A program made the position numbers and the translations under genes. A stretch of DNA of 64,000 nucleotides, from positions 69,357 through 133,356 of the forward strand of contig JAUCBJ010008936.1 of assembly GCA_032718475.1 (NCBI GenBank), in the 5' to 3' direction. Of the stretch, positions 37,203 through 64,000 are shown piece by piece (position 1 is the stretch's first letter; every line of letters begins with the position of its first letter). Source of the DNA: Nemertoderma westbladi (taxonomy: Eukaryota > Animalia > Xenacoelomorpha). The notes under the pieces were generated by a model. That model searched no databases. It saw only the letters and a program-made list of their open reading frames with translations, and had not been told where the DNA came from.

Positions 37203-40200
37203 TTAATCCTCGAATAGGGTCTTCTTGGCCCTCTTCATTACATTTAGGCGGGCATAAATTTGTTTGATGCTTTTTGAATTAAGTTTCAGTGCTGCAGTAT
37301 TAAGGAGCTGAGTCATTGATCCTTTCACAGTTCTAACAGCGGTAGAAGTATCGCGAAAGAGGTGGTCTTTGAAGACATCTTCCATGATTTTATTCTCAGA
37401 CTTTTTCCATATAGCCCGCTTTGGCTTTCCAGCCATTGGAGATTCCTCAGGTGAAGATATTCTACAAGCGTTTACATCCAACGGGCTGTTAGTCGTTGCG
37501 ATTGGTGGCCCTAATGCTTCAGTAGCGGGTCCCAAGTCAATATAAGGCAGGTCAATATTGGGCTGTAATGCAATGCCGGTACGTGGCTCTAATGCGTCAA
37601 TATTGGGTCCCAAGTCAATAAGCGGTGGGTCAATATGGGATTCTAAGTCAACATCTGTTTCACCGGGGTTATTGATAAGATTATAGGCCCGAACAGCTTC
37701 TGCCCCTGAATTCGCAGCATCGTATATTTTTCGTTGCGTAGACATGGAATGTGCCAACTGTTTAGAAACCAAGTTTTGTTCAACCACGGTACGATTCTCG
37801 CGTTGGTTATAGAATGATACTGAATGTCTGTTTAAAGTTGGCGTGATCTTGGATCTCGATTGTGGGAGAATGGTCTTCCACAGATCCTGAATCGGTCTAC
37901 AGATACCACCAATCGGCTGTCCCAGCGTTGTGGTAAACACGTTTTGGACCTGGATACGAACAATCGCATATTGCGGTCGACAGTACGTGCTCCATTGTTT
38001 CACTAATAAATAGGTTGCTTCATCCATGACTATTTTAGCACTTCCATACACTTGATCAGTTTTAAGTTTCGGAACACTTATAACGATTCTATTACTTCCC
38101 TCCCGTTTTCGTTTGGTTACATGTTGCAGCTCCATATTGATAAGCTGGCTAGGTCGCGCACCATTGCGTAAGGCGAGTGCTGCAAATAAGTAGGCCCGCA
38201 TGTCACTAAGCTTCTCACCTGTGGTGTTTGACTTATTGTTAGTAATGTTCTGTAAAGCTAAATGTATATTCTTTATTCTATCTGCAGCAAAAAATTCCCT
38301 GATTTCTTGTTTTGTAGGCATATTATTAGTAGCTTCGTCTAGGACAACGTGAGCCCTTCGTTTCAGGGCCCTTTTTTGCGACCTTTGGATTGCATCCACG
38401 ACACCTTTGGCAGTTAATATATCAAGTTGTGAAACACTATTATTGGTCTTTTGGGAGATGACAACGTGTTGTTGATGAGCAAAAGTCATAAACAGAACCA
38501 TCTTCTGCACGTATACTCTAAGCGAAGTAATTTCCCTCAACTTTTTATTACTACAAATTGTTTCCTCTTGAAGTAATTTATACCCATTCATCAACTGGTC
38601 GCCATTGAACATTATTGCGGGTGATATGGGCTCAGGTAAAGTCATTGCAATTAATGTGTAGTAATGTTTAACACGCTGGGCTGCAAAGTCGACATCTTTC
38701 CACTCCATATCACACATGGGTGATTGTAAATAGGCCCGAAACTCGCCGATGAGGGGTATGAACAAATTAGCAAATTCACTATCATCTTTAGGCACATCAT
38801 AACGTTTCCTGTGCTTTAAAATATGCACTCGCTCTTCATTTTGGACCCGTTTCCCATTTACCATGTCATACGTGGGAATCTCATGCGCATAGGTTAGGTG
38901 ATTGGGGAGTCGAAGTGTTATAGCTCCACATAGCGAACAATTTGAAGGAACTCTTTTACTATTTTTATGATGTTTCTTAGAAAGAGCGGACATATAACGA
39001 ATGTATTTCGGATTAGTAGCCTTATGCTGCTCCCTCATGTGCCGTGTAATATTAATAACTTTCTTATTGCAGGCCGGGCATTCTTTACGATATCGCTTGG
39101 TTACACCGCCATAAGACTTGCGTACGAATTGCCATTTATCACGTTTACCCAATATTGGTTTTCCAGTGTCTAAGCTTTCGTTGTCCTCAGAATCATCACA
39201 GTAAGATGAAGAATCATCCGGAGTCCAATCAGGATCATTGGTATATTGCAATTGCGGGATTTTTATAGCCGCAACTGCAGCATCTTCATCGTCATATGTA
39301 TTAGATTCATGTGTTTCAAATGTATTCATATGACTGTTACCTATAAAAATTAAATAAAATCGAATAATATCCACTGATACTGGGAAGACAATGGAAAGGG
39401 AACATTTTTAAAAGCAATTTTTAAATTCTCATTTTTAATGTCAGACAAAGTCTTTTATAAAATTTCATTGTACTGTAGAAGAAACCATCCCTAAATCACA
39501 CCCCGACAATAAACCAACCCCGGTCGAATTATGTATACTCAGTCCCAGTCATTTGCTACTTGAAACACTCCTGTTTAAGGAGCAGGTGAGCATCCATGCA
39601 CACACCGCACATGGTCAACTTCACCTTTCCCATTTGATTATTTCCCATAACCTTTGAGGCTGTATCATGTAGGCAGGCATTAGCCCATTGTTAGCCTACC
39701 ATTTTGATAGTTAAAGCTTTCTCTGTATGCCACTAGATTATAGTGTTTGTTGTGTGGTAATTTAGGATTAGCAGCAAGTGTTATATTTAAAAACAAGTGT
39801 TATAATTTCAGGTGTTTATATGATAGCAGTATTTGTTATTGCAGTGTTAAAAACAATATTTATTTTATTATTTTATTTTGCATTAAGATACCTACAGGTA
39901 GTTGCCATAGACTAATGTAATAAGGGGCCATCCATAAATGACATCACTCTGAACAGCGGAGGGGGGGGGGGGGGGGGGGGGGTTGATATTTCGTGACGAT
40001 TTGTGACGAAGGGGGGGGGGGGGGGGGGGTAAAAATGTCTTTAAAAACCGTGACGTCATTTATGGATAGCCCCTGATGTATTTTATTACCAGCCAGTCGG
40101 TAACATGATATTTAAAAATAATCAGTTCCAGAAACCGCATTGTAGCACTTGATTTCAACCCAATGGCCAATAATTTGAAGTGCATGTTATGTTACTAACC

Positions 40201-41934: not shown

Positions 41935-44900
41935 TAAAATTATAGTCAAGAATAAGTATCCTTTAAGTCGGAATACGAAGCACGTGACTTCCGCTCGTTA
42001 ACAACCGCAGCACGCGATGCCACTGATGGTCCAGCAGTCTGTCGGGAAATTCGAGTACGTCAGAGTTTATCTCAAATACAAAGGCTATCCCTCCGCAACA
42101 CCAGAATCTCGGTACAGAAACTAAATAAGAAAGCCCATCATGATGAAATCGGTGATGCTACTGAAAGCTATAGTCTAAAACCGGATGGCGAAGTCTGGCG
42201 GTATACAAAACACAGTGACGGCAAATGGAAACGAGACCGTCGATGGAGTTTTGTTGAAGTAGATGCAGATCGCTCTAGGACGACTCAGAACTCCTCTCGA
42301 TCAGATAGCGGTCCCCGCTCCCACCAGGCTATTTGGAGAAACCGTCCCCTGGACCAGGAAAACTAGTTAAGGGAGAGGACGCCGTAAATAGTGGACCTTT
42401 TCTAAACTGTTATAGTGCAAATGTGCAATCAATAAAAATGAAACTTTCCGAACTTCAGGTCTTGTTAAACAATAACAAATATGATATTATAGCCTTAACC
42501 GAAACTTGGGCAAATGAAACTATAACTGATGCTATGCTAGTGGGTGGTACTGATTATGCATCTATGAGACACGATAGATTCCATCTGGATCTGGGCGGTG
42601 GGGTAGCTATCCTTTTAAAAAAAAGCATTAAATGCTGTAGAGTGACTTTACCAAACCATCTTAGTGATGCTGAGGTAATAGGAATTGACTTATTAGGTTC
42701 TAATAAATCTAGAATCATATGTGGCTATAGACCACCTCCCAGACCGGACGTAGTTGATAACACAGCGATTTTATTGGAATCGCTGGCTTTTTTGTGCAAT
42801 ACATCACTCCCTTGTGTTTTAATTGGGGACTTTAATTATCCACTTTTTAATTGGTCTGAATTTGTGTATCCAGACAATGCTTGCTACAACCAGTTTGCCA
42901 CTTTTATCTTGCATAATAGCTTAACTCAATTGCAATTTAAACCAACTAGGGGCCCAAATGTGCTGGATTTAGTGTTCACATCGGATAATCAGTTTGTTTC
43001 TAGTGTTAATACTAACGTACCCTTCTCAACCAGTGACCATGACAGTGTTAGTTTTAATATTTTAGCACCATCCCTTCATATTAATGATAATTCAACCTCG
43101 TATACAGGTTTTTATGATTTTAATAATGGCGACTATACTGCTTTCAGTGCTTACATTAAGAATAGTAATATTATTACCAGGTATGAAAGTTGTGTTACGG
43201 TAGACGATTTTTATGAGACTTTTTCCTCAGTACTTAAGGAAGGCATAGACAAATTTGTCCCTTTCAAACCTTTTAAACAACGCAAAAAGTATTACCCGCT
43301 TTTTGTTAGACGCCTTCAGAGGGCGAAGAAATTACTGTGGAGGAAACGACATAGAGAGAATGGGCGACAAGAATATTATCGTGTGGCAAAGGCTGCAGCC
43401 TCTGCAGCTCACCGCGCTACCTGCATCAAAGAGACTGAAATCCTAAACTCGGGTAACCCTGCTTTAATTTATAAATATATAAATTCAAAGAGAAAATCCA
43501 CCTTGGGTATTGGCCCTTTAAAATTCAAAGGTGATACGGTAGTGGATGATGCGACAAAGGCCCGTATATTTAACGAGGTGCTAACCCAAAATTTTACAGT
43601 TGATAACAATGTAAGCATCAATATACCCAGTAAAGTGCATAGTAGTATTAATTTGTCGACTATAAATTTTAGCCCGGTAAATGTGTTAACTTTTTTGAAT
43701 AAGTTGCCCAATAAGAAAAGTGGGACCCCTGACAACCTACCGAGTATCTTATTTCATCGTTTATCAGTGTGCTTGGCTAAACCATTATCTGTTATATTTA
43801 AACTCTCTTTTGAGACACACACACTTCCATCTATTTGGCTTACTGCTACCATTATTCCTATCTTTAAAAAGGGTGATCCTTGCGACCCCTTTAACTATAG
43901 ACCAATATCATTAACTTGCATCGCATGCAAAATTATGGAAATGTGTGTCAAAAATGATTTATTATCCTATTTGCTATTGAATAAATTGATCAATAAGGCA
44001 CAACATGGTTTCTTGTGCCGTAGGTCTACCAATACACAATTATTGGAGTGTGTTACAGATTGGTATAATATGGTTGATAATAGGCAAAATATCGATATAA
44101 TTTATATCGATTTCGCCAAAGCCTTTGATTCCGTTGTGCACAGCAAATTATTAATTAAACTGAGAGCTTATGGCATAGCTGATGACTTGTTATTGTGGCT
44201 TTCAGCCCTTCTGTCAAATAGGACACAGCGTGTTGTTGTCGGTAAATATTGCTCAGATTTTGCACCAGTTACCTCCGGTACAATACAAGGGAGTGTGCTG
44301 GGACCACTTTTGTTCCTAATGTTCATAAACGACCTACCTGAACAGCTCTTGCCAATAACTGTCAAACTTTTCGCTGATGATGTTAAAATGTATGCTGACA
44401 GTTCGCAGTGCCATTTGCTATCCAATGCACTTAATAAACTGGAGACATGGGCCAGTACATGGCAGCTGTCGATTGCAGCACACAAATGTACTGTAGTTTA
44501 TGTGGGTAAAAACAATTGCAAACATGTGTACTACTTAAATGATAGCGTCCTCAGTGAAAGTTTATTTTGTAAAGATTTAGGCTTAACAGTAATGTCAGAT
44601 CTCTCATTCGATCGGTACTGCAGCGACCAAGTAGCCAAAGCATGTAAAATTGTCAACATTCTGTTTCGGTGTATTCAAACGAAAAACATTAAAGCTCTCC
44701 TTATGGCATACAAAAGTATGGTCCGCCCATTACTTGAGTATTGTACTTCAGTATGGTCTCCATATAAAAAAAGCAGTATCAATCTTGTCGAGAGCGTACA
44801 GCATTACTTTACTAGGCGCTTATATGCAAGGTGCAATATTCCCTATACTTGTTATACAAACCGTTTAGATTTTCTGTTCTTACAACCGCTGGAACTACGT

Positions 44901-45598
44901 CGTATCATATTTGATTTAAAGTTAACCTACAGTATTGACAGAAACCTAGTTGATCTAGATGTAGATAAATATTTTACAAGACCACCGCGTAGTGGTCTTC
45001 GAGGGCATTCTCGTAAATTATTTGTACCTAGGTGCAGACTCAATATGTGTAAAAACTCGTTTAAGCACAGAGTTGTTCCTATTTGGAACGAGTTACCTGG
45101 AGATCTTGTTGATGCTGTAAACCTAACCATTTTTACACGGGGTTTGTCAGGGGTTAACCTACTTAAATATTGCTCTTTTTCAAGAGACCAGGGTAATCCA
45201 TGGTTTTTTCAGTAAAATGTATTTAATCTCGTTAGTATTGTTTTTATTTTTTTTTTTTCTATTTTTTTCCAATGGTCAAACTGGATATTTTCTCTTACTT
45301 TGAACCAATTATTTTAAATTTAATGTTCTTTTTAATTTTCTTCAACATTCCTTGTGTAATTTTAATTTTAATTTCAATTTCAATATTCTTTTTTTCACAT
45401 TAAAACTAATTATGGACCACCATAAGTGCTATATGCCTGGTAGGTATCCTCTCCCTCGAACCATATAATGTATCTTATATCTCAATTACAATATTTTACT
45501 TATATTTAGTAAATGTATTTCGTGTATAATTTTGTATTAATATCTGTTGCTTTGTTTTTTTTTTAAATTTGATTTCGTGTTAATAAATAAATAAATAA
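41935..45598 (+). mobile_element. 5'-truncated CR1-clade LINE (family B), inserted upstream of the YR gene
   Basis: The ORF1 C-terminus (SYSLKPDGEVWRY...GKWKRDRRW...DQEN*, to 42366) is homologous to family A ORF1. It is followed by an intact ORF2, a 3' UTR and a (TAAA)n tail at ~45581-45598. Confidence 0.93.
42357..45215 (+). CDS. CR1 ORF2 (APE + RT), uninterrupted
   Basis: ANVQSI, LTETW, GDFN, LDL, SDH; YRPISLT, DFAKAFD, QGSVLGP, FADD; YKSMVRPLLEY, LRGH, WNELP. Confidence 0.94.
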   Translation, partial: GKLVKGEDAVNSGPFLNCYSANVQSIKMKLSELQVLLNNNKYDIIALTETWANETITDAMLVGGTDYASMRHDRFHLDLGGGVAILLKKSIKCCRVTLPNHLSDAEVIGIDLLGSNKSRIICGYRPPPRPDVVDNTAILLESLAFLCNTSLPCVLIGDFNYPLFNWSEFVYPDNACYNQFATFILHNSLTQLQFKPTRGPNVLDLVFTSDNQFVSSVNTNVPFSTSDHDSVSFNILAPSLHINDNSTSYTGFYDFNNGDYTAFSAYIKNSNIITRYESCVTVDDFYETFSSVLKEGIDKFVPFKPFKQRKKYYPLFVRRLQRAKKLLWRKRHRENGRQEYYRVAKAAASAAHRATCIKETEILNSGNPALIYKYINSKRKSTLGIGPLKFKGDTVVDDATKARIFNEVLTQNFTVDNNVSINIPSKVHSSINLSTINFSPVNVLTFLNKLPNKKSGTPDNLPSILFHRLSVCLAKPLSVIFKLSFETHTLPSIWLTATIIPIFKKGDPCDPFNYRPISLTCIACKIMEMCVKNDLLSYLLLNKLINKAQHGFLCRRSTNTQLLECVTDWYNMVDNRQNIDIIYIDFAKAFDSVVHSKLLIKLRAYGIADDLLLWLSALLSNRTQRVVVGKYCSDFAPVTSGTIQGSVLGPLLFLMFINDLPEQLLPITVKLFADDVKMYADSSQCHLLSNALNKLETWASTWQLSIAAHKCTVVYVGKNNCKHVYYLNDSVLSESLFCKDLGLTVMSDLSFDRYCSDQVAKACKIVNILFRCIQTKNIKALLMAYKSMVRPLLEYCTSVWSPYKKSSINLVESVQHYFTRRLYARCNIPYTCYTNRLDFLFLQPLELRRIIFDLKLTYSIDRNLVDLDVDKYFTRPPRSGLRGHSRKLFVPRCRLNMCKNSFKHRVVPIWNELPGDLVDAVNLTIFTRGLSGVNLLKYCSFSRDQGNPWFFQ

Positions 45599-47882: not shown

Positions 47883-49196
47883 CAAATAAAATAGAAGCAC
47901 TATTTGAAGAGACAGTAACAATACCTGCAATATCTTACTGTAAAGTTTGTGAATCAAATCATAAATCCGACCTTCTCACCAAAACAGTAAACTCTAAGTA
48001 AGCGAATATATTGCAGTATCGATCTCTCATAACCGGTGAGGCAGAAAACAGTCTACGAGCAGACAAACTTCGATAAAACAAAATCCCGCGCAGCGAATCC
48101 TAAAATCAGGCTGACTCACTGACGGACTAAGGGGCTCGTATACTTTGCCGCGGTGTGATTTATATGGTTGGGCGAAAGGGACGCTAGCTAGGGGCAGAGA
48201 TTTGGAGATGTCTAACTAGCGGGCAAAGTGCAGTACGGACAAAAGTTAATTTTATATATTTTGAGGTGTAAATAATTTCTAACGCGCGTGTGTTAATTCT
48301 GAACAGTCAAAGCAGTTTTGCTCCTTCATATATATAATTACTGGGTACGGTGTGCATTTTACAAATATTCTAATTTTGTAACTTGTAGGGCCAATACTCA
48401 CGAATGATAAGGCTCCTTCCCCTCTTGCGTATTTCCAGGACTCAAATTCAGGCATAAGGTTAATGCTACGCCCAGAATTCGGCAATTTTAATTTACCAGG
48501 CCCCTAATACTAAGAAGAAATGTGTTAGTTTACTACTGTAGGCGTACAGTTACTAATAGCTATCCTGGCTCTTATCTGGAATTTTAGTCACCTAGGTAGG
48601 CTGGGTAACTTCCTATCAGGACGTTGGCGGGGACACGGTAGATGTTAGTATATCCCTAATAGCCTCAATTTATTTGCGCCTAGTCGTAAACTGCCCTACC
48701 GCCTGAACGGTACAATCCTAATTCAGGTGAAACACAGCAACCCTCCTAGCCTACAAGTTCTAATGCAATGGACACCGTTGTACTACAAATAGTCGCAAAC
48801 GCACCTGTACTTAGCAAGAGTTAGGCGTACAGTTTGCTGCACCCTACCAATGTGTATGCCTTGTACCGGTGTGCCTACGTCCTATCTGCGTACTAGTATC
48901 TCTGCCTGCTCTCTCTCCCCCCCCCCCCCCCCCCCCCCCCCGTAGGAATATGAAGGTCTACTGCGGTTTTTTCCTGAATTAAGACAGTACAGTCCCTAGA
49001 TGTAATTTTAGGCGTACAGCGTGTCACTACTTCTACCTTTGATCTTTGGTCTTACGCTTAGGTAGCAAGGCATCGAACGCTGTCTAACCTTTCAGGCGAT
49101 GGGCGAATAACTAAGATGGTATTGCGGGTTGTCTCCTGTCTACATTCCCTTGATGTTCCCGTTCATTGCTGCGGCCCGATCTCTAGCCGGCCATCC

Positions 49197-50332
49197 TGTT
49201 CCTAAGTGTGTTCACCGTAGTGAATCATGGTGAAAAGAAAAGGCAGGTAGCGGTATTTCTGAATTTATTGCAGATAATAATACAAAATGTAATCTGAAAA
49301 CTAATGACCGAATAAACAAATATCAGATAACTCAGAATAATTGTGTAAGTGAAGAGGGTGTGTGAGAGTGTAATTAATGAACGAAACTGCACCTTTTATA
49401 GCAAATTTGTGCTGCAATCAATCGAGAACATTCTATAATTATATTGGGTTTTTAAAGATAATCATTGGTCCAGCTAATATATAACTTGCACGACATTGGT
49501 TACAATCTAATAACTGCAGTCTCATTGGTTAATCTAGGTACAGACAAATGCAATTTAATTTGTAGCGGTCAATTTAAATGAGTTGAAATTCTGCACAAAA
49601 AATAATTCGCACTTACTAGGATTCGAACTCAATACCTACTACACATATAATTTCCAACGCTCTACCGACTGAGCTACTGAACCACTTGACTAAACATCGT
49701 ACAATAGATATAACAAATACAAATGAGGACTCAAAGTAATCTTTTAGCAAAGTTAATTCGAATAAAAATAAAATTTTGAAAATCCACGGCATTTAGGGAA
49801 TATAATTCTATACCGCTCCATGAAAACAGGATATTATCGTGCATAAAATATACGGTTTTCACCAATAATCAATCAAACTATAGAATACTTAGGGCGTACT
49901 TACATATTTACAATTAAATTTCAAACAATACTTCCTTTCTACATAATGATTCGATACAAAATAATTACAAATTCAAACTTTACGTATTTAAGGCTTTACT
50001 AAGTAAGTACAATATAAATCTAAATTAAATTCACCAATATAAATCTATTGCATCTCAATATTGCATAAATTCAAACAATTACAAATACAAATAAGTGAAA
50101 ATTTTCTATTTCACTGTAAATACAAATACTGCTTATAAGATATAAATTGCATAGTATTCGGAACAATATAAATTGCATAAGTTCGGAATAATCACAAATA
50201 TAAAATATAAATCTTGCAAATATAAATTCTTACTGACTATAAATCTTACTAAATATAAATTCTTATAATTAAATATAAAACATATAATTCAAATAAATCA
50301 CAAATTCACAAGAAAGGCTCACGAGTCTTCCA
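49197..50332 (-). promoter_or_regulatory. Putative LTR (U3 with CCAAT boxes and TATA box, poly(A) signal)
   Basis: Begins TG right after the purine tract aaagggagggcaagggtgga (50333-50353). Several CCAAT at 49443-49528, TATAAAAGG at 49400-49392, AATAAA at 49269-49264, and ends ...GGAACA at 49197. Alternative ends at 49209 and 49927 cannot be excluded. Confidence 0.7.
49608..49684 (-). other. tRNA-derived (Pol III A/B-box) segment inside the LTR
   Basis: GGTTCAGTAGCTCAGTCGGTAGAGCG (D-arm/A box) ... GAGTTCGAATCC (B box). The anticodon and acceptor stems do not pair, so it is not a functional tRNA. Confidence 0.75.
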
Positions 50333-50351
50333 TCCACCCTTGCCCTCCCTT

Positions 50352-53300
50352 TTATCGCTTAGTTGATCGAGCCCTGCCGCGTCCTCGAAAACTGCGCACA
50401 GGTGACTTTCCTCGCGATATGGGACTCGTGGGGCGAGTCACTGGTTTCGCTTGGACGTTGAGAGACGGTGCAACTATTTCCTCGCAAATTCGTCTATTTG
50501 GTATCCCAAAACCTCGACCGATTCCTCGTGACCGATCAGTTGTCACTACAGTTGGTAAAACGTCTGGGAACGAGCGAGAAGCGGACGACGCAGACCCAAG
50601 AGCAGCTTGCGCCCCCTTTTGATCAGCTGGTGTTTGTCCCGATCCTCCTGTTGGTTCTCTAGGAAGCGATACCGTATCCCGAGTAATTCGAATAGTCGGC
50701 TCAACTCCCTTGCGTTCTTCTATATTAATAGACTTCTTTAATTGTTGGCCTACTTTCTGGACCCGTATGATCCTACCCTGTCCATCCTCCCGAGGGTGAC
50801 GTGCAGACGGCGCAACCGGAGTGGCTGGTATATTTGTCGCCTCTAGGACCTCCTCTTCCTCGAATACACTCGCTCGTATACGTTTGTGGTAAAACGCGGC
50901 TCGGTATGCCCATGCGACGGTTAACCAAGCTCCTTTATTCCGCTTTTCAGTTCGGAAACGATCGAATTCACCATACGTGATGCGATTAACGACTTTCTGA
51001 AAATTCCACGTGTTTTTGTTATCCGGGTGAATCTGTAATAGATACTCGCGCACTACTCGGAATCCACTGTCATGGGGCAAAATATCGACTACCTCGATAA
51101 GTTTGTCATATTGGGGCATAGCTGAAATGTATCCTTCCAACATCATCGTTTGGGGATTTACCGCCCAAAATCCAAGATGCGCCCTCATCGGAAATCGTCT
51201 TCTTTGTGCCGATACATGTTCGTCGGCTAAATCTTCCCACTCATCGAATAATTTTCTCACGAGTTTTACAGATTCGTGTTCATAGGGTATGTCTCTTAGT
51301 TGGCATTCAGATGCTCGATGCCCTTTTATATTGCAATAAGTACATTGAGCCATAAATATCCAGCAAGTATAAAAGGTATGAGACCCTTGATCTCCACACC
51401 ATCCACAGATTAGCTGAGTCGTAGTAATGTGCTTTCCACTGCACTTGGTCGAATGATGTCCAGCGACGCCACATTTACCACACATCGTATTGGCAGGGTA
51501 CCACACTCGTTCGTATATAAGATCTCCAATCGGTCGAGCGCTTCCTCCCACACTATAATCGTAATCATCTGGATCTATGGGTTGGTAGGTTTCTGAAGGT
51601 TGTATACAAACTATAGCATCTGTTGCTTCAAGTTGTCGAATCTCCGTCTGAGATTTCTTTGGGAGGTTCCTTTCTATCTCAAGAAGTTCCTCTAAAGGAT
51701 CGTCGGTGATCATAGTAGTTACTTCGAAATCATCACCAAGGTGACCGATAGGCGCGCGCGTCTGCCGTGATTCATCCGTAATCTCCACGATACGTTCTCC
51801 TTCATAGGGTAACAATGTAAACATAGATGGTCTTTCGATAAGAGATCCTGCACAGCGAAGATACACGTCTCGAAATATACTAAATCCTGCTCGAGTAAAG
51901 GCATTACACTGAGCGTCGGAGTTGTAGAAGGGTTCAAGGAATCGTCTAAACACATCGGTATGAATTCTCCCTTCCATGTAGAACGTATGATCTTCTCCGA
52001 GACAAAGTGGATGTCTTTTGAGAGTCCGAGACACAATGTCGGCGATTAGGCAAACATTCACTGACGACTCTATTGCTAAATAATATTGTAGGACCGCTCT
52101 TGGAGGTGACGTAATAGCCCAATACACGCATCCTCTCCATTTAAGCTGTGATTCAAACTCACTCATATCTGGAGTATCACCTTCTCCATAAGTCTCAATA
52201 TACTTGGTTCTCTTACTTTCCTTATAATCCCAATTGAATAACAGGTAGGAAATGTATCCAGTTCCAGTCTTCTGAGTATTATACTCACGAAAATATCCCT
52301 GTTCTATAGACCACAAAATAAGAGGTCGAGTGTCGACGTAAGGTGTCGGTAGTTGGTCATCGATGTCCGTCATGCCGGCGAAGTATCGCAAATTAAGTCC
52401 TCCCTTACTCCTGATCCAATCTTTACAACAGTTTTATCTAAAATCATGTTTCTTACCATCTTCGGTAGCATTCTAGCGTCGATATTACAAGCTTGGTCCA
52501 TCTTCTTTACTATGTCAGTGATAAGATGGTGTCGCTTTGTATTCGCTGGAGGTATCGGCATTCGTTTGTCGCTCCTCTGTCTACTGAAAACGTGCAGGAC
52601 TCCGTCCGCCGCTCTAATTTGTATAGTCTTAGAAGTCAAACTCTGTTGATGACTGCCGCCCTCGTTATCATAAAACATGTAACCATTTTCCTGAAACGAT
52701 CTAAACGTTCTATTCCATTCATCCAACAATTCTTCCGAAGGTTGCCAAATCTTCTCTATGTCCTTATCATCTTCGAAACGAATAACCTTACCTCGCCAAT
52801 CCGCGGCAATATCTGTATCCGACTCGAAGGTTCCGGTTCCAATCCATAAACGAATCGTCTTGGTTAAATATCCTTTCAAATTACTCGGAGCTATATCGGC
52901 ACCAGCTCTATCCAGTTCCTTAAAGTCTTGAATACGATGATCCACGATGGGTATTTCGTACGTCGTATCCTGTCGGACTGGTATACTAATAGGAAAATTG
53001 AGTGTCGTACTCAATGGTTTCGTAGTCGAAGTACTATATGGTTGCATTTCTCTTGTCCTCTCCAGGGATGCAATCTGTAGTCTCTGAATAACATTTTGAG
53101 CAAAGTTTATGCTCTCAAAAACTTCCGGTGTCATCTCCTTAGCTGGAGTTTGATCGTGTGACGTCCAATGGTAAGGTAGGCTCGCGAGTCTTCCGCCCCA
53201 TTCTTCCATCTCACCTTTCTCGAAAGCCTTGTAGGCTCTGTATAGGCTAAGAGCTTCTTTCTTTTCGCGGGTTGACTGATTCGCCTCGTCCAGCGTAAGT

Positions 53301-53965
53301 TCAAATACATCGGGTTCAACAACCTTAGGTGGGTAAACGACAGTTTCTCCCGCCTTTGGTCCGGTCATAGCAAATGAATGATATGGATTCGATAAAGGAT
53401 ACCCTCCTTCCTGGTAGCGTAGTTGTTGATGGTTCGAACACCTCGCCAATATCGGTTCGGGATTTTCCTTATTCAAACGCATCGGAATCGCATTTCGTTG
53501 TTCGCGCATACAAGAACCGCATTGATAATAAAGTTTATAAACTGAAAATGCTTCCTTGGTTTCTCTATCGTCCCCTCGAGTTCGTCTGTAAAGATGCATT
53601 CCATCGAATTCATCGCGTACCGCGGGCATAGGTTCATGCGCCTTTAGGTATTGCATGGTATGATACAAACGACTAATTTCAGTATCGGGGTCTTCGCTAA
53701 TGTCTCCCGTATCACACAAAGTGTCGTACGGGTAAAGTTAATTGAAGGTTTTGTGCAAACTTTCGATTCTTTCATTTAATGCGTTTTGTCTTTTCTTTAA
53801 TACATTTGAGTCATATTTAGTTCTCGCGAGTTTCGCAGTACTTTCTGATAATTCTTTTATACCAAATATAGTGTAGTCCTTGGCTCCAAATCTTTCGAAT
53901 GGCGCTGCTGCCTCCTCTTGGATATCATATCCCCATCTCGGCTCTCCTTGTATCCCTTTCTCCAT
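50352..53965 (-). pseudogene. BEL accessory ORF (~1200 codons; one stop, one frameshift) with three CCHC-type knuckles and an RG-rich tail
   Basis: ORFs 53738-53965 and 52370-53719 are in the same frame across one TAA; 50352-52391 overlaps in another frame. Knuckles CGKCGVAGHHSTKC, CGWCGDQGSHTFYTC and CTYCNIKGHRASEC. It ends RGRGRARSTKR immediately before the PPT. Confidence 0.75.
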
Positions 53966-54625
53966 GATTAGAGGTGTAGTTACATAATCATTACTACTAG
54001 AGGGAATACAACAGAGTTTGTAGTTAGTTGTGAGGAGACGTGAGAGTTTCGTCTGCCCTTTTGGCTCGACAACGCTCTAACCTCCTACCCATAGCCTAAG
54101 ATCTAGGGTTTCTTTAATGACACGCTGCTTCTTATCTAAAATTTTTTGCCGAAATAAAAACGAATTTGGGCTAAACTGGCTGTGAGTCTAAAATACTCAC
54201 TTTTTGATCCCAAACTATTATCAGAAAATAAGCAGTCAAGAATTAGTAATAAATATAGGGAAGTCTTATTTTTGACGTAACTTATTGAAACAAGACCGTG
54301 TAAAATTTAATTAAAATTTTAAGAAAGGCTCGCAAGTCTTCCTCTCTTGTTTCTCTAATTTTAAGTTCCACCCGACTGTACCCTGAAATCTATTCACTGG
54401 AGAAAATTTTAAAAATTTTCAAATCCAAATGGATTGTCTAAAATTTCGAAAATGTCTCAATATTGTGAGTTCCAAGTAGAATTCCATTTCTTATACCTAC
54501 AAATCCCGCTCCTATGTGACACATAAGGGTACTACCCTCAATGTTCACATATAAAGACAATGGAATTCTACCGCTGTCCTTACTACGGTGTACAGGTACG
54601 TGGAAATCTATTTGTAAACTCCTAA

Positions 54626-57600
54626 TTATTTACTAATATTAGGAGGAGATTTGTAGTCTCCAGACTCGTTACGAGTCTCTTCAAGAAGTACGAGACGTTG
54701 AGTCGGTCTGTCTACTGTACGACCATCAATTGTCCGTACCGTCACAGTTCTTGTCACTCCATCCATAGATGGATGTGTGGCTAAAATTACACCTGTTATC
54801 CAGAAGCGTCTTTTTAGATTCACTTCTGCTAACAGCACGTGATCTCCCGGCTTTAATGCGCGGGTGTTATTGTACCAGTTTGTTCTGGCAGAAATAGAGG
54901 GCAAATAATGGTTTTGCCATATTTCCCAGAATTTGTTAGCTAGTAGTTGCGTGATTTTCCACGCTTTTCTACCGTAGCTATCGCCTTCTATTGGAATAGA
55001 AATAGGCGTTAATGTCGTCGGTGCCTGCATAAGCAGGTGTGCCGGTGTTAATGCAAACTGGGATTGTTTGTCATCGGGTACTAATACTATTGGTCTAGTA
55101 TTTAGTATTGCCTCGATTTCAACAAACAGTGTTGTCAGTTGGTCGTCTGTCAATATGTGGTTTACTGGAATGACCTTTGCCATTGCCGTTTTGATAGATC
55201 TAATCAATCTCTCCCAGACTCCGCCTCTCCATGGACTATCTGGAGGATTAAACTTCCAAACAATCTTGTGAGGTTGTAGTTCGTTCGAGATTTGATCATG
55301 ATCTAATTTCTTAAAGGCTCTAGCAATCTCATTTCGAGCACCAACAAAGTTTGTCCCTTGGTCTGAGTACAAGCACTTCACTAGTCCGCGTCTGTCTAGC
55401 GATAAATCGCCGCAATGCTAGTATAAACGCGTTGGTGGAAAGATCCATCACACGTTCAATATGAACTGCCCTACTGGACATACATGTGAAAATCAGTCCC
55501 CAGCGTTTTACTAGTATACGTCCACGTTTCGTATGTATGGGACCAAAGCAATCAATTCCAGTCTCTGTAAAAGGTGGTCTGAATGCTTGAAGTCGTGCTT
55601 GTGGAAGTTCACTCATTTCTTGGGTACCTATTCTAGAATGTACCTTTTTACAAATAATACACGTACGTGTCACTGAACTTAACGCTTTACTGGGTCTAAT
55701 TAATACAAATCTTGTACGTAAGTAGGAAAGACAGTGGTGTCTTCCAGCGTGTTTCAGATGTAAATGTGCGTCCAGTATCATTGCACGTTGTAGTTCGTGA
55801 TGCTGTGGTATTATTATTGGGTATCTAAAGTTTGTGTTAAAGTCAATGTTTTGAAGCCAAGATTTATGACAAATTAAGCCATTATAAATAATCGGACTCC
55901 AACTCAGTATTGGTGACGACTTGATTGGTTGACCTTGATTTATAGATGTGAATTCGCGCGCGAAATATCGCAGTTGGTAATGGCGAATTAATTTAATCTC
56001 ACACCTGTCAATCTCAGTCAATGTAAGTCGACGTGTAAAGTCTCGTTTGCCTTTAACGTATTGTACAAAACGTACAATTCACGCTAATTTTCGGCAAGCG
56101 TTTGTCCAAGAGTCTGTTAAGTTTACAATACGGTCGACGTGAGTATTTGTGACGTCATCAGGTAAGTCAATGGAGAATTTGGAAGGTTTTTATTTACTAG
56201 AAGGGCCCACGGGTCCGCCGGTAATTATTCCCTTGTTGACTGTTGATCCGTCCGGGTCTACAAGTAATTTGTCCTTCTTCGTCTTCTTACCTTGGTTGTC
56301 AGTACTTTGTAAGTCGATCGTTAATGGTGGTTTGAACTCTATGGGGTCAGTGGGTTTCGGTACACTTATTTTTCTGCCGATATTAATCCCGGGTCTCACC
56401 ATAGGTTGCAAGTTTGGTATGTCTCTTGAGCGCAGAGTAACACCTGTATTTACATTAGCGTAGGTACTACCCACATGAGGTATCACTGTGCTTATGGTTG
56501 CTCAAGTGTGTCAAATTTGGTAGTTTGTCTATAGAAGGCCGCTCCAATAGGGAAACTGCGGCTTTTCTATTTGTCAATATGTTACTAGTGTCTGGTAGAA
56601 CATTTTGTGACATGTCTGGTAAAATGTTTCGCGGAACATCCGGCAAAATATCTAGTGACGTGTCTGGCAAAACGTCTGGTTGACCATCTAGTAACGTATC
56701 TGGTTGTTTGTCAATAGAAGGCCGCTCCAATAGAGAAACTGCGGCTTTACTATTTGTCAGTATGTTACTAGTGTCTGGTAGAACATTTTGTGATATGTCT
56801 GGCAAAATGTCTGGTTGGCCGTCTAGTAACGTGTCTGTTTGACCGTCTGGCGATATGTCTGGTGTAGAAAGGCTCGCAAGTCTTCCGTTCTTGACCTTTG
56901 AAGTTATCGCTTTCCATTTCGCCTTCGGTTTTTTCTTGAGTTTAGCCGCCGTCTTTTTCTTTGCTTTCCCTTTCTTTGGTTTTTTAATTTCCGCGTCTTT
57001 AGGGATAGTGTTAGACTTGTTGTCGTATAGTGGCGGCCAATGTTGTATTGATCCCTGCAAGAACCGTGGTCCGTGCTGCCAAAATTCTTTGTTCTCCGGT
57101 TTACAGAATTCCTCAGACATCATTCCTCTTGACGCAATATCGGCTGGGTTTTGTGGTCCGGGACAATGTCGCCAATCTTCCTTTATTGAACGGTCTAGAA
57201 TTTCTGCGCGACGGTTAGCTACGAATGTCTTGAATTCAAGTGTGTCGTTGTTTATGTAAAATAAAACCAACGTCGCGTCAGTCCAATAAAATATCTGTAA
57301 ACTTGACTGTAGTTCTGTCTGTATAAGGTTCACGATTGTGGTTGACAGGGTTGCGGCTTGTAGCTCAGCTCGTGGTGTCGTCATATACTTAGTAGGCATT
57401 GTTTTTGCCTTAGAAGTAATGAGCGAAACATCGAATTCTTCTGAGTCTACTTGTCTGCGCAAGTACGCTGCCACACCAAAGCCGTTGTCACTGGCGTCGG
57501 AAAAACAATGTAATTCCAAGTTGTCAGGAAATGTTGTTTGTAATGGAAAGTAGACTCTGGGTATGGAATAATCCTCTAGCGAAGATAATTCTGCCTCCCA

Positions 57601-60600
57601 GGTTTTCCATAAGTCCACTTGGTCTGATGAGATCGGCTCATCCCATGTTAGTCCATCCTTCCAAATACTGCGCATATAAATTCTGGCTTGCAGTATTATT
57701 GGACTGATGAATCCTAATGGATCGAACAATCAGCTCAATTTTGACAAGCATGATCTCTTTGTCAGTGTGTTTTCTTGACTGTCCAGTCTCACCTTCACTC
57801 GAAAGTTGTCCGTGTTTGGGTCCCAAAAGAGCCCCAACACCTTGGTCGTCGGTAGTGGTTCGAACTCTAGGTCTATGTCACCACCTCCACGCTCAGTCGT
57901 TCCGAATGAGTCTACCAATTCGGCACTGTTTGAGGCGAATTTGGTGAGGTTAAAACCTCCGCCCTCTAAGCAGTCCCGTAATTGATGTGCTACTGTTATA
58001 GCACGTTCTACTGTGTCACAACTCTGTAAACCGTCGTCGACGTAAAAGTCACGTTCTACGATCTTAATTATCTCTGGGTCATATATGTGTTTCTGATCCC
58101 TAGCAGCTTGCTTTAGGGCGTACATCGTACAGTTTGGGCTGTCCCTGGCACCGAAAACGCGAACTTGCATTTGGTAAGTCGCCGGTGGTAGACTTAAGTC
58201 TCCTTCCAGGTACCAGAGGAACCTCAAACTGTCTCTGTCTCGCTCTAACGCTCTCACTTGGTGAAACATAGCTTCGACGTCACAAGTAAAGGCTACTTGA
58301 CGCTGACGGAAGCGCATAATCACCCCCATAAGATAATTATTCATGTTTGGTCCATCCATTAACTCACTGTTGAGGGACATTCCCTCAAACAGAGCCGCAC
58401 AGTCATTGACTACACGTACTTTGTCTGGTTTGTCGGGGTGTCTCACGTAGTGATGTGGCAAGTAGTATGTTTGGTCAGTCACTATCTCCGGGTTAGTCAT
58501 TCGGATAGCGTATCCCTTGGACAAATACGTCTCCATCTGAGTGTTGTACTGCAGATGGGCTTTCTCGTCCTTTAATAGACGTTGTCGTATTGAGTGTAAG
58601 CGTCTTAAAGCTAGTGGATAGTTATTTATAAGTTTAGGACTTTGGCTACGCCATAACATCCCTACCTCATAATGTCCGTCTTTCGTCTGGCGGATAGTAT
58701 CTTCCATGATCTTCAAAGATTGTTTCTCCTGTTCCGACATACATGGTTCGTAGCTACCAGGTTCAGCTGTATCTTGTTCTAACCACCTGATAGTCTTCTC
58801 CGTTAATTCTTTGTCCAGTGCAGCTTGTTCCACTTGATGATTTCTTAACGCGTCATCATCGATATCGACGGGTATTGTTGAGGTTATTGGGGTAGGTAGA
58901 CTCGCAAGCCTTCCGGCGTTATCATCTGTCGTCGATGGAATCTCTGGCTGACTCGTCTTCTCCCCAAGTTCTAAACTCACCTGGTGGATTAGCTGCTCCT
59001 TGTGACTTATCATACTAGTTACACGTCTGTCATGTTTTGTATGTAAGGTAGTATAGTCTACGTCGTGTGAAAAGGAATGAGTCGACGTTGTAGTTAATAA
59101 ACTACATGTACTTTGTATATCGTCTTCCTCGTCACTTATATCCAGTGTGCGCACAGGCGCTCGAGTATACCACCCTATCGGCGTTCTACAGGCGTATGCG
59201 TTTCCCGCTACGACTGCCGATGGTCTGGTTTCCCACACTTGATGTAGGTTGAATTGGTCTGTCCCGATCAGCATTGCTACCGATCTATAATTGACAGGAC
59301 ATTCAGGTACACCAAGGTGTCTGAAATACTTACGGTCCTCCAAGGATTGTTCTGGGACAGGACCTAGTAGGTTACTAAAGTCCTTGGTGGCCGCAAAAGT
59401 CAAATCCTTAAAGGGTAACAAAGACCTCTCCTTTTCGCTGTGTTGCGATTTCGGAAGAAGAGTGTCTAAGTTTAACTTAACTCGTGTCACTGGTATTGCA
59501 CGTTGTCCGTGCATACTACTTACGGTGTAACTGACGTGCTTACCTTGTCTGAGATCCGTCACGACATCAGCTATCTGCTCATCCACGTAGCTGTGAGATG
59601 AGGCTGAATCCAGGATAGCGTAGATTCTCTTGCTCCCTTTTGTGCCAGTAATCTTAATCGGAATTACACTGAAACCCTTTAGTTGGTCAGTCGTCAGAAG
59701 CGCGATCGATGGTTGTTCGTCTCCATCTGAATATACGTCGTCGTCTTCCGACTCTTCGTCCGACGATCCGGATTGTTCTGAGAAGCAATCCTTAATATGT
59801 GTCACGAAGGTTGGAGTCGTTTTCGATTCTCGATTCTTGTAGGCCGTATTACATTTCGCTGCTGCTTCCGGGTGTTCCCTGGCGAAGCGTTTTGTCGGCG
59901 TGTGGCTGTCTGTGTGGAGCAGACCGTCGTGGTTGCGTCCACAGGATGGACAAGTGTCGGTATTTGGGCAATCTTTGCGGACGTGTCCGTGTCGCGTACA
60001 CCGCCAACAAGAGTCCAATGGCCGTATCTGCAGCCGTCGTTCTTCCGAGTTTAACTCGCGAAACTGTCGACAACCTCTCAACTTGTGACCGATATACCGC
60101 TTGCCTAAATGCTCGCAGTATTGGCAGCCGCTGAAGTCTGTACTGAGTTGCTGTCTAGTCTGTTTTATTCCAATGGGCGCAGATACCCTACTACCGTCCG
60201 AGAATTGTCGTGTTTCCGTCGATGTGGCGTAAGTGGCCGTCTTGGTGGATGTTGTCTGGGGTTTTTGTCGGTTTGAGGATGGCAAGGTGATTCCTTCTGC
60301 TACGATGTGCTGGTCAGTGTAGTTGGATCGAGTTTCTACCACTGCTTCCCTGGATATCAAAAGGTACACATCTTCCAGTTTTAAGAATCCACCCCGCTCT
60401 TCCCGCTGGTATTCGATCTTCCTCCACTCCCGACGAAGTCGATGGTGGAGTCGTCCTATGATCTTTAATAGGACTGTAGGGGTATTCCCGTAGTCAAGTT
60501 GTCCAATGGATCTCAAAGTAGTGATAGCGTTCTTTATTTCGTCAGCCAGTTTCAATAAGTCGACGGGTTTAGTAATAGCCCCTCCCTTACAGAGTTCCTC

Positions 60601-61160
60601 TATCACTGACCTGGCCATGCTGACTGTACCTCCGTAGATCGAAGTTAAACGATCGTACGCTAGTTCGAAGGCGTCCGGTACACCAACGAAGGTCTCCGCC
60701 AAACGTTTAGGTTCTCCCGACAACGTTTGAAGCAGGTAATTAAACTTCTCCCGTGATGTAAAGGCGCACACGGCGATCTGAGATTCGATATAGTCTACGA
60801 AAGTGTGCCAGTGTTTTGAGCTACCGGAAAACTTAGGTGGTTGTTGCACCGGTAGTCCTTGTCTAGCTGCGAATTTCGCTATTTCTTCTGCAACGTTCAG
60901 AGTTTCGCGTCCTTGGTTGGTAATCTGGTTGATGTCCCTTCTTGGCGCTTTTCCCTGATCACTTGTGTCCTTCTGGGCTCCTCCCCGAGGCGCACCCACG
61001 AGGCGGACACCTTTCCACCACCCCTGGGGCCAGTCCGACTGCTTGTTATTATCAGACCGGGCCGGAGGGTGGCCTGATGCTTCCCGGGTTCTGTTTTCGG
61101 TCCCCCGATCACACCAGCACAGCTCGTCGAACGTGTAGCTAGATGGGCGGCTACTGTCAA
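54626..61160 (-). pseudogene. BEL/Pao gag-pol polyprotein, interrupted by a few stops and frameshifts
   Basis: Gag PKFSG..W..F; BEL triple knuckle ending CPSCGRNHDGLLH; protease LDSAS; RT YLPHH, RVVND, DVEAMF, FYVDD; RNase H FSDAS, PRAELQAA, NPADIASRG; integrase H..H..CIIC, IDCFGP, SDQGTNF, GGVWERLI; C-terminal DGVTRTV. Stops at 57730 and 56467, and a 4-bp duplication frameshift at ~55390. Confidence 0.95.
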
Positions 61161-61558
61161 CTTACTGTGGCCTGACTGTACATTGAGCCAACTCAAAGTA
61201 TAACAAAGAGTCAACCGGCAGGTGGACCAGTCGATAGCGATCGAGCACCAAGGTCGCCCTTGGGCCTAACCGACGGTCTTGTCCCAAGCGGGCTTGCGCT
61301 ACCCAACATGGAATATTGACACGTTTTCACCTGCCTCGCCGGCAGTATTGAGGGGACACCGTTCCTCAACAATACTGACTAGCTCGAAAGCTAGGAACAA
61401 GTAACCAAAAGTTGTAATAAGGTTGTAATAAAATGAGTACTAAGCCAAACTACTCGACCCTCAACAGGCTCTAGTTGGCAATGATCTCCACATCCTATGA
61501 ATAATTTTCCACCAAATTGCCTTTATGAGTAGTATGCTAAACACCTGGATTGAGACAG

Positions 61559-61939
61559 TGTCTGCCATAGTCTACCATGTTAAAGAATTTGCCGAACGGC
61601 TCTTGCCCCGCCTACTTACTATGATTACTATTGTTGCCCCACCCACTTACTATGGTTACTATGGTTACCATTGTGCATATGTAACATATGTCACCACTGT
61701 GTATATGTGACATATGCGGTATAAGGCCAGTCCACAGACGGAAGTAATTTAATTAATTCGTGTCTACCGGTCGGCGTTTGACCTTGAACCGCAATAGGTA
61801 AAACCCAATATAGTAAGTGGGTTGCAGACGTTTGTTATAAAGTGAACAAACCCATAATATTACACCTTTAATTACAGTTGCAACAGCTCATCTCCAATTT
61901 ATTTAATAAAGTCTTTAACATGATAGACTATTACAGACG
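61559..61939. repeat. Segment bounded by 28-bp imperfect inverted repeats (probable non-autonomous DNA element piece)
   Basis: tgtctgccatagtctaccatgttaaaga versus tctttaacatgatagactattacagacg (24/28 match as an inverted repeat). Confidence 0.55.
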
Positions 61940-62002
61940 CAACAACTAAAAAAAGGTGAATAAACACAGACTAACGGCGGCTACCAATATTGTCAAGCAA
62001 TA

Positions 62003-62540
62003 AGTTGTGGGGGCGAGCCGCGAAGTGAGAATAAGGTATTTATAATATTATTTTAATTTGATTATTCTACCTATGGGGGCGAGCCATGAAGTGAGTGATA
62101 GCATCGAAGTAAGGTTATTGTATTTATACTTATCACTACGCAACAAGTTGTGGGGCGAGCCACGAAGTGAGTATAAGGTTATAGTATTTATAATATTATT
62201 TTAATTTGATTATTCTACCTATGGGGCGAGCCATGAAGTGAGTGATAGCATCGAAGTAAGGTTATTTTAATTTGATCATTTACTTAAATCCGACGCCGCT
62301 TTATTTAAAAATTTCTCCCACCACCCCACCCGCTTATCCCGCTATCACCATCTGCCCAATCTTCTTCCTCATCCACAACATCATTACCACTACCACCATC
62401 ACCCGACATCCCCTTCATTCCTTTCCAACATTGAAAAAATGGGGCGAGCCATGAAGCGAGTGAAGCCTTAGCATATGGGCGCCATTAATGAGTTGTGGGG
62501 CGAGCTACGGCGAAGTAAGGTTATTGTATTTATAATATTA
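62003..62540 (+). repeat. Cluster of ~6 repeats ggggcgagccaygaagtgag (related copy at ~33557-33615)
   Basis: Recurring units, including two longer ~145-bp tandem blocks. Confidence 0.8.
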
Positions 62541-62642
62541 TCATTATACCAACAAATTTGATTATTATACTTAAATCCATCACCATTACTATTTTAAAAT
62601 TTCTTCCACCACCTCACCCATTTATCCCACTATCCTCGCTAT

Positions 62643-63059
62643 CTACATCCACCGCATTATTACCATTACCACCACCACCCCATCACCCAACACCTCCATC
62701 ATTCCTTCTAACATCTCAATCCTTTCTTTCATCACCTTCTCCTGCGCACACCTCTCAGCTTCCCTCGCTCTCCTAACCCCCTCAGCCTCCATCTCCAACT
62801 CCCAATCTTCACCCCACGCGCTGTTCTTTCTCGCCTCTTCCTCCAAATAATGGTTCTTCTCTATCTCCTCCCACTTGTTTCTCGGATTTAACAACCTCTC
62901 CAACCGCGCTTCTTCTTTCTCCCTCGCATACATAGCCACCAATATTGCTTCATTCTCCTTCGCTATTTCAGCCGCCACATCCTCATCTTCCTCCTCTTCC
63001 ACCTCTTCCTCCGCATCCATATCTACTTCATCCACCACAAGTTCATTTTCCCCCAACAT
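62643..63059 (-). CDS. Orphan Glu-rich protein, 138 aa
   Basis: ATG-initiated ORF downstream of an AT-rich TATA-like spacer; low-complexity acidic/coiled-coil sequence; no family recognised. Confidence 0.4.
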   Translation of the reverse strand: MLGENELVVDEVDMDAEEEVEEEEDEDVAAEIAKENEAILVAMYAREKEEARLERLLNPRNKWEEIEKNHYLEEEARKNSAWGEDWELEMEAEGVRRAREAERCAQEKVMKERIEMLEGMMEVLGDGVVVVMVIMRWM

Positions 63060-63291: not shown

Positions 63292-64000
63292 TCACACTGA
63301 ATGTTTATTCTTCTTTATTTGAGGTTGCCCATTAGTCTCGATTTCATTGAAAATGTCTTCACCATCATCCGTATCATTGACGATGTCCTCTTCAAAGTCG
63401 CTGATATCTTCATACTCATAGCTAGGTGTTTTATTCACGATGAGATCAATTTTTCGCTTAAGCGCTTGTTCTTTCATGGCTTTAGGTGTTTTCATCTTCA
63501 TCTGAGCGCTCACACCCCCAACGAGGGTATCAATATCCTTATAATCATTCTTTTTTTCAGTGCTGTCTACCTGTTCATTTTCTGCAATCGCAGGCAACCA
63601 GATTTTTTTCTCATCCATTTTCTTAGCAGCGACTTTTACTGCTTCGGACGTCTTCAGCTGACTAGCATTGTTCGGCATTTCCACTTTCATTAGTTCCTCG
63701 TCCGCTAATTCATCAATCGCAGCCTCAACAACTAACTTTTTAATCGGTAGAAACTCACACCCAGACGGAATATCGCGGTCCGCGTACTTCTGTAATTGCT
63801 TAATTATCTCGACATTTGCGTTGTTTCGAGGGATGAAAATAACCTTGGTGTCGAAGTTGTGGGACAAATATATCCCGTTTTTGTTAACGGTTGATGTGTA
63901 CCTCATACTAACCTCATCGATATTCTCGTTAACATTCTTATCTATGTTAAAGTCGAGCAAACAGAATTCATCCGCTCTGAGATTCAACCCATCGTAATAT
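63292..64000 (-). CDS. Orphan protein, 5'-incomplete (>231 aa), with a globular N-terminal part and an acidic/basic tail
   Basis: Long open frame running to the window edge, intronless in this stretch; no family recognised. Confidence 0.55.
   Translation of the reverse strand, partial: YYDGLNLRADEFCLLDFNIDKNVNENIDEVSMRYTSTVNKNGIYLSHNFDTKVIFIPRNNANVEIIKQLQKYADRDIPSGCEFLPIKKLVVEAAIDELADEELMKVEMPNNASQLKTSEAVKVAAKKMDEKKIWLPAIAENEQVDSTEKKNDYKDIDTLVGGVSAQMKMKTPKAMKEQALKRKIDLIVNKTPSYEYEDISDFEEDIVNDTDDGEDIFNEIETNGQPQIKKNKHSV

Follow-up and report, generated by a model that had tools for sequence, protein, structure and literature searches.

Seven dispersed copies of a candidate RNA hairpin in a BEL/Pao retrotransposon of Nemertoderma westbladi

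A BEL/Pao long terminal repeat (LTR) retrotransposon occupies 49.2-62 kb, on the minus strand, of a 64,000-nt stretch of the Nemertoderma westbladi contig JAUCBJ010008936.1 (hereafter the window), and we find that it carries seven copies of a 20-nt motif, all in one orientation on the sense strand of the element. Judged from their sequences, the copies likely form small RNA hairpins. We tentatively propose, giving it slightly less than an even chance, that they constitute a dispersed signal which would be bound by CCHC-type zinc knuckles encoded by the element itself and would act in export or packaging.

Copies, core and covariation of the motif

A previous interpretation made from the letters alone, the sequence-only reading, had described five copies in the same orientation, and these are found where it placed them, since the 20-letter pattern gives five exact matches, and 11 matches at up to three mismatches on both strands, compared with 0.07 on average, and never more than 1, over 100 shuffles. 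The coordinates given at that time covered an 18-nt part of the motif, and the full 20-mers begin at 50312, 53175, 54323, 56867 and 58895 (minus strand), by which starts the copies are named below. The flanks of the five are unrelated, with two to four of five letters agreeing per column outside 20-21 nt. The count of five was however too low, as two more copies, 51747 and 56200, came up in a weight matrix and in a core scan that did not constrain positions 8 and 13, bringing the number to seven (Table 1). Five of the seven are situated in coding sequence, and the gaps between them (1435, 1428, 1148, 1877, 667 and 2028 nt, about 1.4 kb apart) are more even than expected at random (coefficient of variation 0.315, p ~0.009). 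The 15 nt upstream of the copies are furthermore purine-rich, with a mean of 0.70 vs 0.56 in 62 control starts (p 0.002).

The invariant core consists of G5-C16, A6.C15 or G.U in its place, C7-G14, a free pair at 8/13 and a YGYG loop, in which G10 and G12, the second and fourth loop positions, are identical in all seven copies and which reads UGCG in three. The two added copies keep G1, G2, G5, the A6.C15 mismatch, C7-G14, C16, C20 and the YGYG loop. The perfect 8-bp stems that had been claimed do not hold, as the original five copies have just six or seven of eight standard pairs, with A.C at 6/15 in four of the five and A.A at 3/18 in two; over all seven copies the A.C at 6/15 is kept in six. 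As for the covariation claimed among the five, the swap of A.C for the G.U wobble is indeed seen, but Watson-Crick double changes are absent, and the replacement of G-U by G-C at 2/19 is likewise present but accompanied by an A.A mismatch at the neighbouring 3/18. From the original five copies alone, selection on RNA structure is not shown.

The additional copies provide such double changes, since pair 8/13 is U-A in the original five, G-C in 51747 and C-G in 56200, and pair 4/17 goes from A-U to G-C in 56200 (two pair types over the seven copies), which makes three compensatory cells in two pairs (8/13 and 4/17). The one-sided changes at 2/19, at 8/13 and in the loop are all tolerated as G.U on the sense strand, and within the loop, 9 can pair with 12 and 10 with 11 in 7/7 copies on that strand when G.U is allowed, compared with four and five of seven on the antisense strand. 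In a held-out test, a structure model and a model of primary sequence were each built from the five original copies, and with E-values that are to be taken as rough, the structure model retrieves 51747 at 20.1 bits (E 0.0016) and 56200 at 16.6 bits (E 0.02), while the primary-sequence model gives 51747 at E 5.5 and does not list 56200. The three best new sites of the structure model, the third being 55726 at 14.2 bits (E 0.12), all lie within the element and on its sense strand; the best site outside the element reaches 14.0 bits, and the other 50 kb of the window hold no site better than E 0.13. A model built from all seven copies gives no clear eighth, with 55726 at E 0.59. Two or more core-plus-pair sites arise in 1 of 1500 dinucleotide shuffles of the element minus the five copies, none of the 1500 gives the full descriptor, and the sole core match outside the element (38189) has two of eight pairs. 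The seven-copy covariation score is 0.262 vs 0.138; of 500 shuffles, 6 attain it, and slid controls stay at or below 0.131, so that the covariation previously put forward for testing is borderline: related sequences can pass such shuffles, for which reason the case rests on the held-out test and on the kept mismatch.

Selection at the nucleotide level had been argued from the recurrence of the peptide GRLASL in three unrelated protein regions, and this notion is strengthened by the new copies, which read QTRAP (in another frame) and GGPVGP, so that the constraint is on nucleotides and not on a peptide. The GRLASL argument by itself is weak, since all four differences among the three GRLASL copies fall at third codon positions, which pair mutually in this frame, and differences confined to third positions would fit peptide selection as well.

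Table 1. Coordinates of the motif copies and of the parts of the BEL/Pao element in the window
Feature	Positions	Strand	Remarks
Likely LTR promoter region	49260..49690	-	tRNA-like A and B boxes, four CCAAT, TATA 49400, AATAAA 49269; boundaries not fixed
AT-rich, length-variable 3' region	50040..50311	-	sister contigs carry further motif copies near 50100
Copy 1	50312..50331	-	non-coding, 20 nt past the stop of the extra open reading frame (ORF); loop CGUG
Extra sense coding region after pol	50352..54076	-	three pieces here (112, 455 and 693 aa), interrupted at 53738 and near 52400
Three CCHC-type knuckles of the extra ORF	51303..51482	-	51441-82, 51363-407, 51303-44; RG-rich tail at ORF end
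Copy 2, newly found	51747..51766	-	extra ORF, other frame (QTRAP); pair 8/13 G-C; loop CGCG
Copy 3	53175..53194	-	extra ORF, GRLASL; loop CGCG
Copy 4	54323..54342	-	non-coding, in the integrase-extra ORF spacer; loop UGCG
Remaining pol, several frames in this copy	54626..57729	-	RNase H region PF05380, expanded linker, integrase (PF17921 below cut-off, PF18701)
Possible eighth, diverged copy, not counted	55726..55745	-	integrase zinc finger; full 8-pair stem, loop CCAC
Copy 5, newly found	56200..56219	-	3' end of the RNase H-integrase (RH-IN) linker (GGPVGP); 8/13 C-G, 4/17 G-C; loop CGUG
Copy 6	56867..56886	-	RH-IN linker, GRLASL; loop UGCG; same sequence as copy 4
BEL/Pao gag-PR-RT frame (PR, protease; RT, reverse transcriptase)	57730..61161	-	DUF1759; Gag knuckles 59968-60009 and 59914-59952; motif-free in and upstream of gag
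Copy 7	58895..58914	-	PR-RT linker, GRLASL; G-U replacing A.C at 6/15; loop UGCG

The element and its extra coding region

The order gag-PR-RT-RH-IN and the presence of BEL-type domains identify the element as BEL/Pao, the Pfam matches to DUF1759, Peptidase_A17 and DUF5641 being above cut-off and that to Integrase_H2C2 just below. Ninety relatives carry BEL/Pao domains at 27-46% identity, and the named ones heading the list are mostly from marine invertebrates. The expansion of both motif-bearing linkers, noticed in the sequence-only reading, is confirmed by comparison with these relatives, as the PR-RT linker is 171 aa long vs a median of 78 (range 68-115, with both anchors found in 27 of the 90), and the RH-IN linker measures about 422 codons vs a median of 162 (40 of 90 measured, 38 of them at 186 or less and the other two being anchor misses). 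A 183-nt tandem duplication is found in the RH-IN linker at 56515-56863. Upstream of gag, a 31-nt inverted repeat (61560-61590 and 61908-61938, arms 317 nt apart) may be part of the 5' region of the family, contig depth continuing across it. In four public runs, contigs span the whole stretch and show many variants, and we therefore consider the element to belong to a multi-copy family with subfamilies, which go down to about 82% identity.

Integrase is followed by a 550-nt spacer and then by a sense coding region of about 1260 codons, the three pieces of which we infer to be one gene. Its knuckles match Pfam zf-CCHC at E 0.043, which is below the cut-off, and the leads that Atlas gives to CCHC clusters are all below 0.9. 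Homolog searches with the extra ORF were without match, except for one match confined to the knuckles at E 1.4e-6 among 1.84 billion representatives, and a comparison with the sequences of the PDB likewise gave nothing meaningful, the best hit (E 0.0023) being a designed protein and a nucleocapsid (NC) protein at E 0.95 not constituting evidence. AlphaFold models of the ORF have predicted local distance difference test (pLDDT) values of 31 and 37, a quality that does not allow a search by fold. Some sister contigs have gaps of about 2 kb in the extra ORF (51793-53810 and 51905-53826) and are deletion derivatives, which drop copy 53175 and break just beside copy 51747.

Outside the element the motif leaves little trace. 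A search of 49000-63000 against Rfam finds nothing up to E 5, related loci were found in none of the viral or prokaryote contigs, and peptides derived from the motif in the frames tried are absent from the 90 BEL relatives, GRLASL occurring in 0 of 90. Repeated 6-mer peptides at least 100 aa apart are present in five of the 90, in two copies each and with no shared motif. Exact-pattern matches at one viral and 81 metagenome loci are read as chance, each being a single site (at most two mismatches) with no tblastn or blastn match to the element, and readings of the motif as a splice site, a frameshift site or a tRNA complement were dropped by eye, there being no matching consensus.

Candidate readers and alternative explanations

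The combination of a weak stem, a kept wobble and two invariant loop Gs makes the motif look more like a protein ligand than like a stability element, and knuckles of the element's own are favoured as reader because those of human immunodeficiency virus (HIV) and Rous sarcoma virus (RSV) bind such loop Gs and because the element encodes knuckles in Gag as well as in the extra ORF. The HIV NC knuckles are described to bind the Gs at loop positions 2 and 4 of stem-loop (SL) 3 (GGAG) and SL2 (GGUG), and the N-terminal knuckle of RSV to bind G218 in the loop of SL-C (PMC7599994), which reads UGCG (PMC5035970). In the mechanism we have in mind, the hairpins would fold in the genomic RNA rather than in DNA, a protein would stabilise the weak hairpin, CCHC knuckles from Gag or the extra ORF would bind the two invariant loop Gs, and hairpins thus bound would tag this long RNA as one to be exported and packaged; new copies would likely originate from RT template switching or tandem duplication and be kept where linkers and non-coding stretches tolerate them. 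Whether the reader would be the product of the extra ORF is doubtful, and for Gag NC the case would be slightly more doubtful still. Doubtful to the same degree as the former is the wider proposition that this BEL/Pao lineage may have a pair of its own, in which an orphan triple-knuckle protein would bind at least seven evenly spaced hairpins and thereby coat, export or package the genomic RNA, as a distributed system reminiscent of Rev and the Rev response element (RRE) that would be new to Belpaoviridae; the pairing of extra ORF and hairpin is proposed from their co-occurrence in one family.

Each ingredient of such a system is already known elsewhere. Cer1, for instance, is a Ty3/gypsy-type element. 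Its accessory protein CERV is required for export of the genomic RNA (PMC10309623), and Cer1 with CERV and HIV with Rev/RRE resemble the present case as LTR retroelements that encode an additional cysteine-rich protein and have to export RNA in unspliced form, the RRE however being one large structure whereas the BEL motif is a dispersed small candidate hairpin. RSV mu-psi SL-C and HIV-1 SL2/SL3 likewise combine a four-base loop having G at positions 2 and 4 with CCHC knuckles from the same element, but are single hairpins within the 5' leader, whereas the seven near-identical copies of the BEL element extend through pol and the extra ORF into the 3' region. The even spacing of the copies fits the dispersed packaging signals described for RNA viruses and hepatitis B virus, which are also many weak stem-loops sharing a motif within coding sequence, although these signals are degenerate and bind coat protein, unlike the sharp 20-nt family with its kept A.C (PMC6281560; see also bioRxiv 10.64898/2026.06.18.733228). 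Multi-copy symmetric CG motifs, an extra ORF and 3' copy-number variation are shared with the Sirevirus motifs (PMC2829016) and the 3' tandem arrays of Retand (PMC11963269), which are however non-coding and read as DNA sites or polypurine tracts (PPTs), whereas five of seven BEL copies are coding and show double changes. Finally, SL-C and SL-D of murine leukaemia virus (MLV) and the dimerisation initiation site (DIS) of HIV are alike in having a self-complementary loop in a pseudopalindrome with a possible extended duplex (PMC7599994), but the MLV loop is GACG and occurs in one or two leader copies, as opposed to YGYG in seven dispersed ones. No publication on a dispersed hairpin or packaging signal in BEL/Pao (Belpaoviridae), nor an account of RNA selection, export and packaging by these elements, was found in a search of mostly non-subscription literature, supplements excluded. 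As a candidate the motif is well delimited, with 20 nt, an invariant core and two possible readers, and its natural variants provide internal controls, so that it is testable with short oligonucleotides and small domains; if the proposal is true, dispersed packaging signals would extend from RNA viruses to LTR retrotransposons, and a second accessory-protein system might be found beside CERV.

A considerable number of observations must nevertheless be held against a signal read by knuckles. The hairpin is weak, at -0.4 to -4.9 kcal/mol for five copies, the isolated 20-mers of both new copies prefer another fold, and the pair probability of C7-G14 is at most 0.39 in 20 of 21 folds with 20-80 nt of flank. 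The stem pair counts do not choose a strand (46/56 sense, 47/56 antisense), and formal covariation is not just borderline but built on only three cells, with the number of doubly changed pairs being reached by 166 of 500 shuffles and the number of cells by 35 of 500. Retroviral psi lies in the 5' leader or gag and is absent from spliced RNA, but here, where the true 5' end of the element is not fixed, no copy is found in gag or the 5' region (58920-62500), and three of the seven copies would remain in any spliced mRNA of the extra ORF. The motif is furthermore not found in other BEL families, as judged from peptide traces in the 90 relatives, the extra ORF is without homolog and without a usable structural model, a position of copy 1 at the start of the LTR could not be verified, and the outer arm of copy 58895 is touched by a 9-nt deletion (58911) that is frequent among sister copies. 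The retroviral parallels are not unequivocal either, since PMC5035970 reports that a change of the RSV UGCG did not lower Gag selectivity in vitro and that a GC to UU change in the loop was without packaging effect, and PMC7599994 that swaps of the HIV GGAG loop had little effect.

Other functions of an RNA structure may be considered. A role in RNA-RNA contact, by which self-complementary 20-mers would kiss, convert to extended duplexes and dimerise or compact the genome at many points, is in agreement with the self-complementarity of the loops in 7/7 copies on the sense strand, with homoduplex energies of -17 to -25 kcal/mol for the 20-mers as compared with the hairpin energies given above, and with reports that MLV SL-D kisses via two G-C pairs and that NC converts the HIV DIS to an extended duplex (PMC7599994). 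We find it unlikely, as a gain upon duplex formation holds for any hairpin, the Y/Y loop changes would equally result from transitions beside invariant Gs, seven sites would invite mispairing and the kept A.C lowers duplex stability. Marginally less likely again is that a host protein reads the hairpin as a redundant zipcode or stability element, which would serve germ-line transport or protect an RNA with a very long 3' region from decay. The presence of copies in both coding and non-coding parts, two of them following stop codons, would suit such a function, and three of the four localisation elements of ASH1 are likewise located in its ORF. That ASH1 has four such elements is described in bioRxiv 10.1101/2024.03.10.584336, but a host signal is poorly compatible with the lack of an Rfam match, of any copy better than E 0.13 in the other 50 kb and of a peptide trace in the 90 BEL proteins. 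The copies might also be internal sites of plus-strand priming, each a purine tract with an inverted repeat, spaced so as to speed the copying of a long genome. The purine-rich 15 nt upstream, the even spacing and the fact that the best purine tract of the 3' region adjoins copy 50312 all point in this direction, as do the multiple PPTs of Sireviruses with an inverted repeat at the terminal one (PMC2829016), but the tracts share no sequence, four of the seven are only 0.53-0.67 purine, and what is conserved is the stem core and the loop Gs, which makes this explanation quite unlikely.

No more probable than internal priming is a neutral origin, in which a short palindrome was spread by RT template switching and its arms were co-corrected by the same process. 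It would explain that copies reside in tolerant linkers and in a length-variable tandem region, that two are identical and that the window copy is without the extra 3' copies, but arm correction should erase the A.C mismatch, which is kept in six of seven, and the diverged copies keep the core yet change both sides of other pairs, within a sharp boundary of 20-21 nt and at even spacing. A double-stranded DNA site for a dimeric factor, be it an enhancer, insulator or internal promoter, would resemble the repeated motifs of Sireviruses, whose RM boxes are concentrated in the LTRs and ahead of the env-like gene (PMC2829016). Such a site could account for a near-perfect spacerless palindrome which matches both strands, has CpG and is in tandem near the promoter-like end in sisters; it is however very unlikely, since 8/13 and 4/17 would not need to change jointly (from base frequencies, the chance of three double changes is about 1 in 64) and since all seven copies have one orientation. 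Finally, the DNA repeat could be secondary to the peptide GRLASL, if this served as a linear motif or was cleaved by the protease, which would agree with two copies at the PR-RT and RH-IN junctions and with the four differences among the three copies being synonymous. This explanation is largely refuted, and hence extremely improbable, because the motif occurs twice outside coding sequence and twice with a different peptide, once in another frame, and none of the 90 relatives has GRLASL.

The 3' region, sister copies and other features of the window

Copy 50312 had been placed at the start of the LTR. This is unconfirmed because sister contigs have more motif copies about 200 nt past 50312 and because promoter-like signals are located 800-1050 nt beyond it; in addition, self-BLAST reveals no second LTR in the window, and the contig depth of sisters does not resolve an LTR boundary. 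The tRNA-like A and B boxes (49619-49676, minus strand) are upstream of the CCAAT/TATA cluster in what is the likely LTR of a coding element, and ARAGORN calls no tRNA there. PMC10886601 describes tRNA-like LTRs for the non-autonomous Helenus terminal-repeat retrotransposons in miniature (TRIMs).

Sister contigs are joined from 50341 to 50103 in runs X3 and X4 and from 54342, within the motif, to 50057 in X3, and loose ends at 50101 run into the motif in X3, X4 and X5, the last of which, possibly an RNA run, is labelled as another organism (B) and has the loop CGCG. These additional copies, in tandem near the 3' end, are missing from the window copy. Copy 50312 has no variant at 8% or more, though there are only four variable places in 461 nt, and two X3 contigs have U.G at 8/13 on the sense strand. 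The deletion at 58911 accounts for all depth in X4, about 40% in X3 and 10% in X1, and taken alone it alters the outer arm of 58895 while six inner pairs and the loop are kept, as worked out by hand with nearby substitutions not visible; the substitution view behind the 58911 variants comprises 40 of 892 rows.

Several further features were observed in the window. A short-repeat family is located at 61997-62550, with one match at 33557-33612, and at 62440 there are 43 contigs of run X1 with unlike left flanks, a break which suggests that a distinct high-copy element ends here. Two LINE-like elements that are related to each other, at 10724-14790 (minus strand) and 41956-45215 (plus strand), have frames for endonuclease and RT. 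The 857-aa ORF at 19028-21601 (plus strand) has no Pfam match, and we take it to resemble an EnSpm/CACTA-type transposase. A satellite array of 30-nt units (35500-37195), both strands of which have open frames, is followed by a 734-aa ORF at 37203-39407 (minus strand) with a weak tyrosine-recombinase match (PF00589, E 0.0003, below cut-off), and a 235-aa frame at 63292-63999 (minus strand) is open at the window end.

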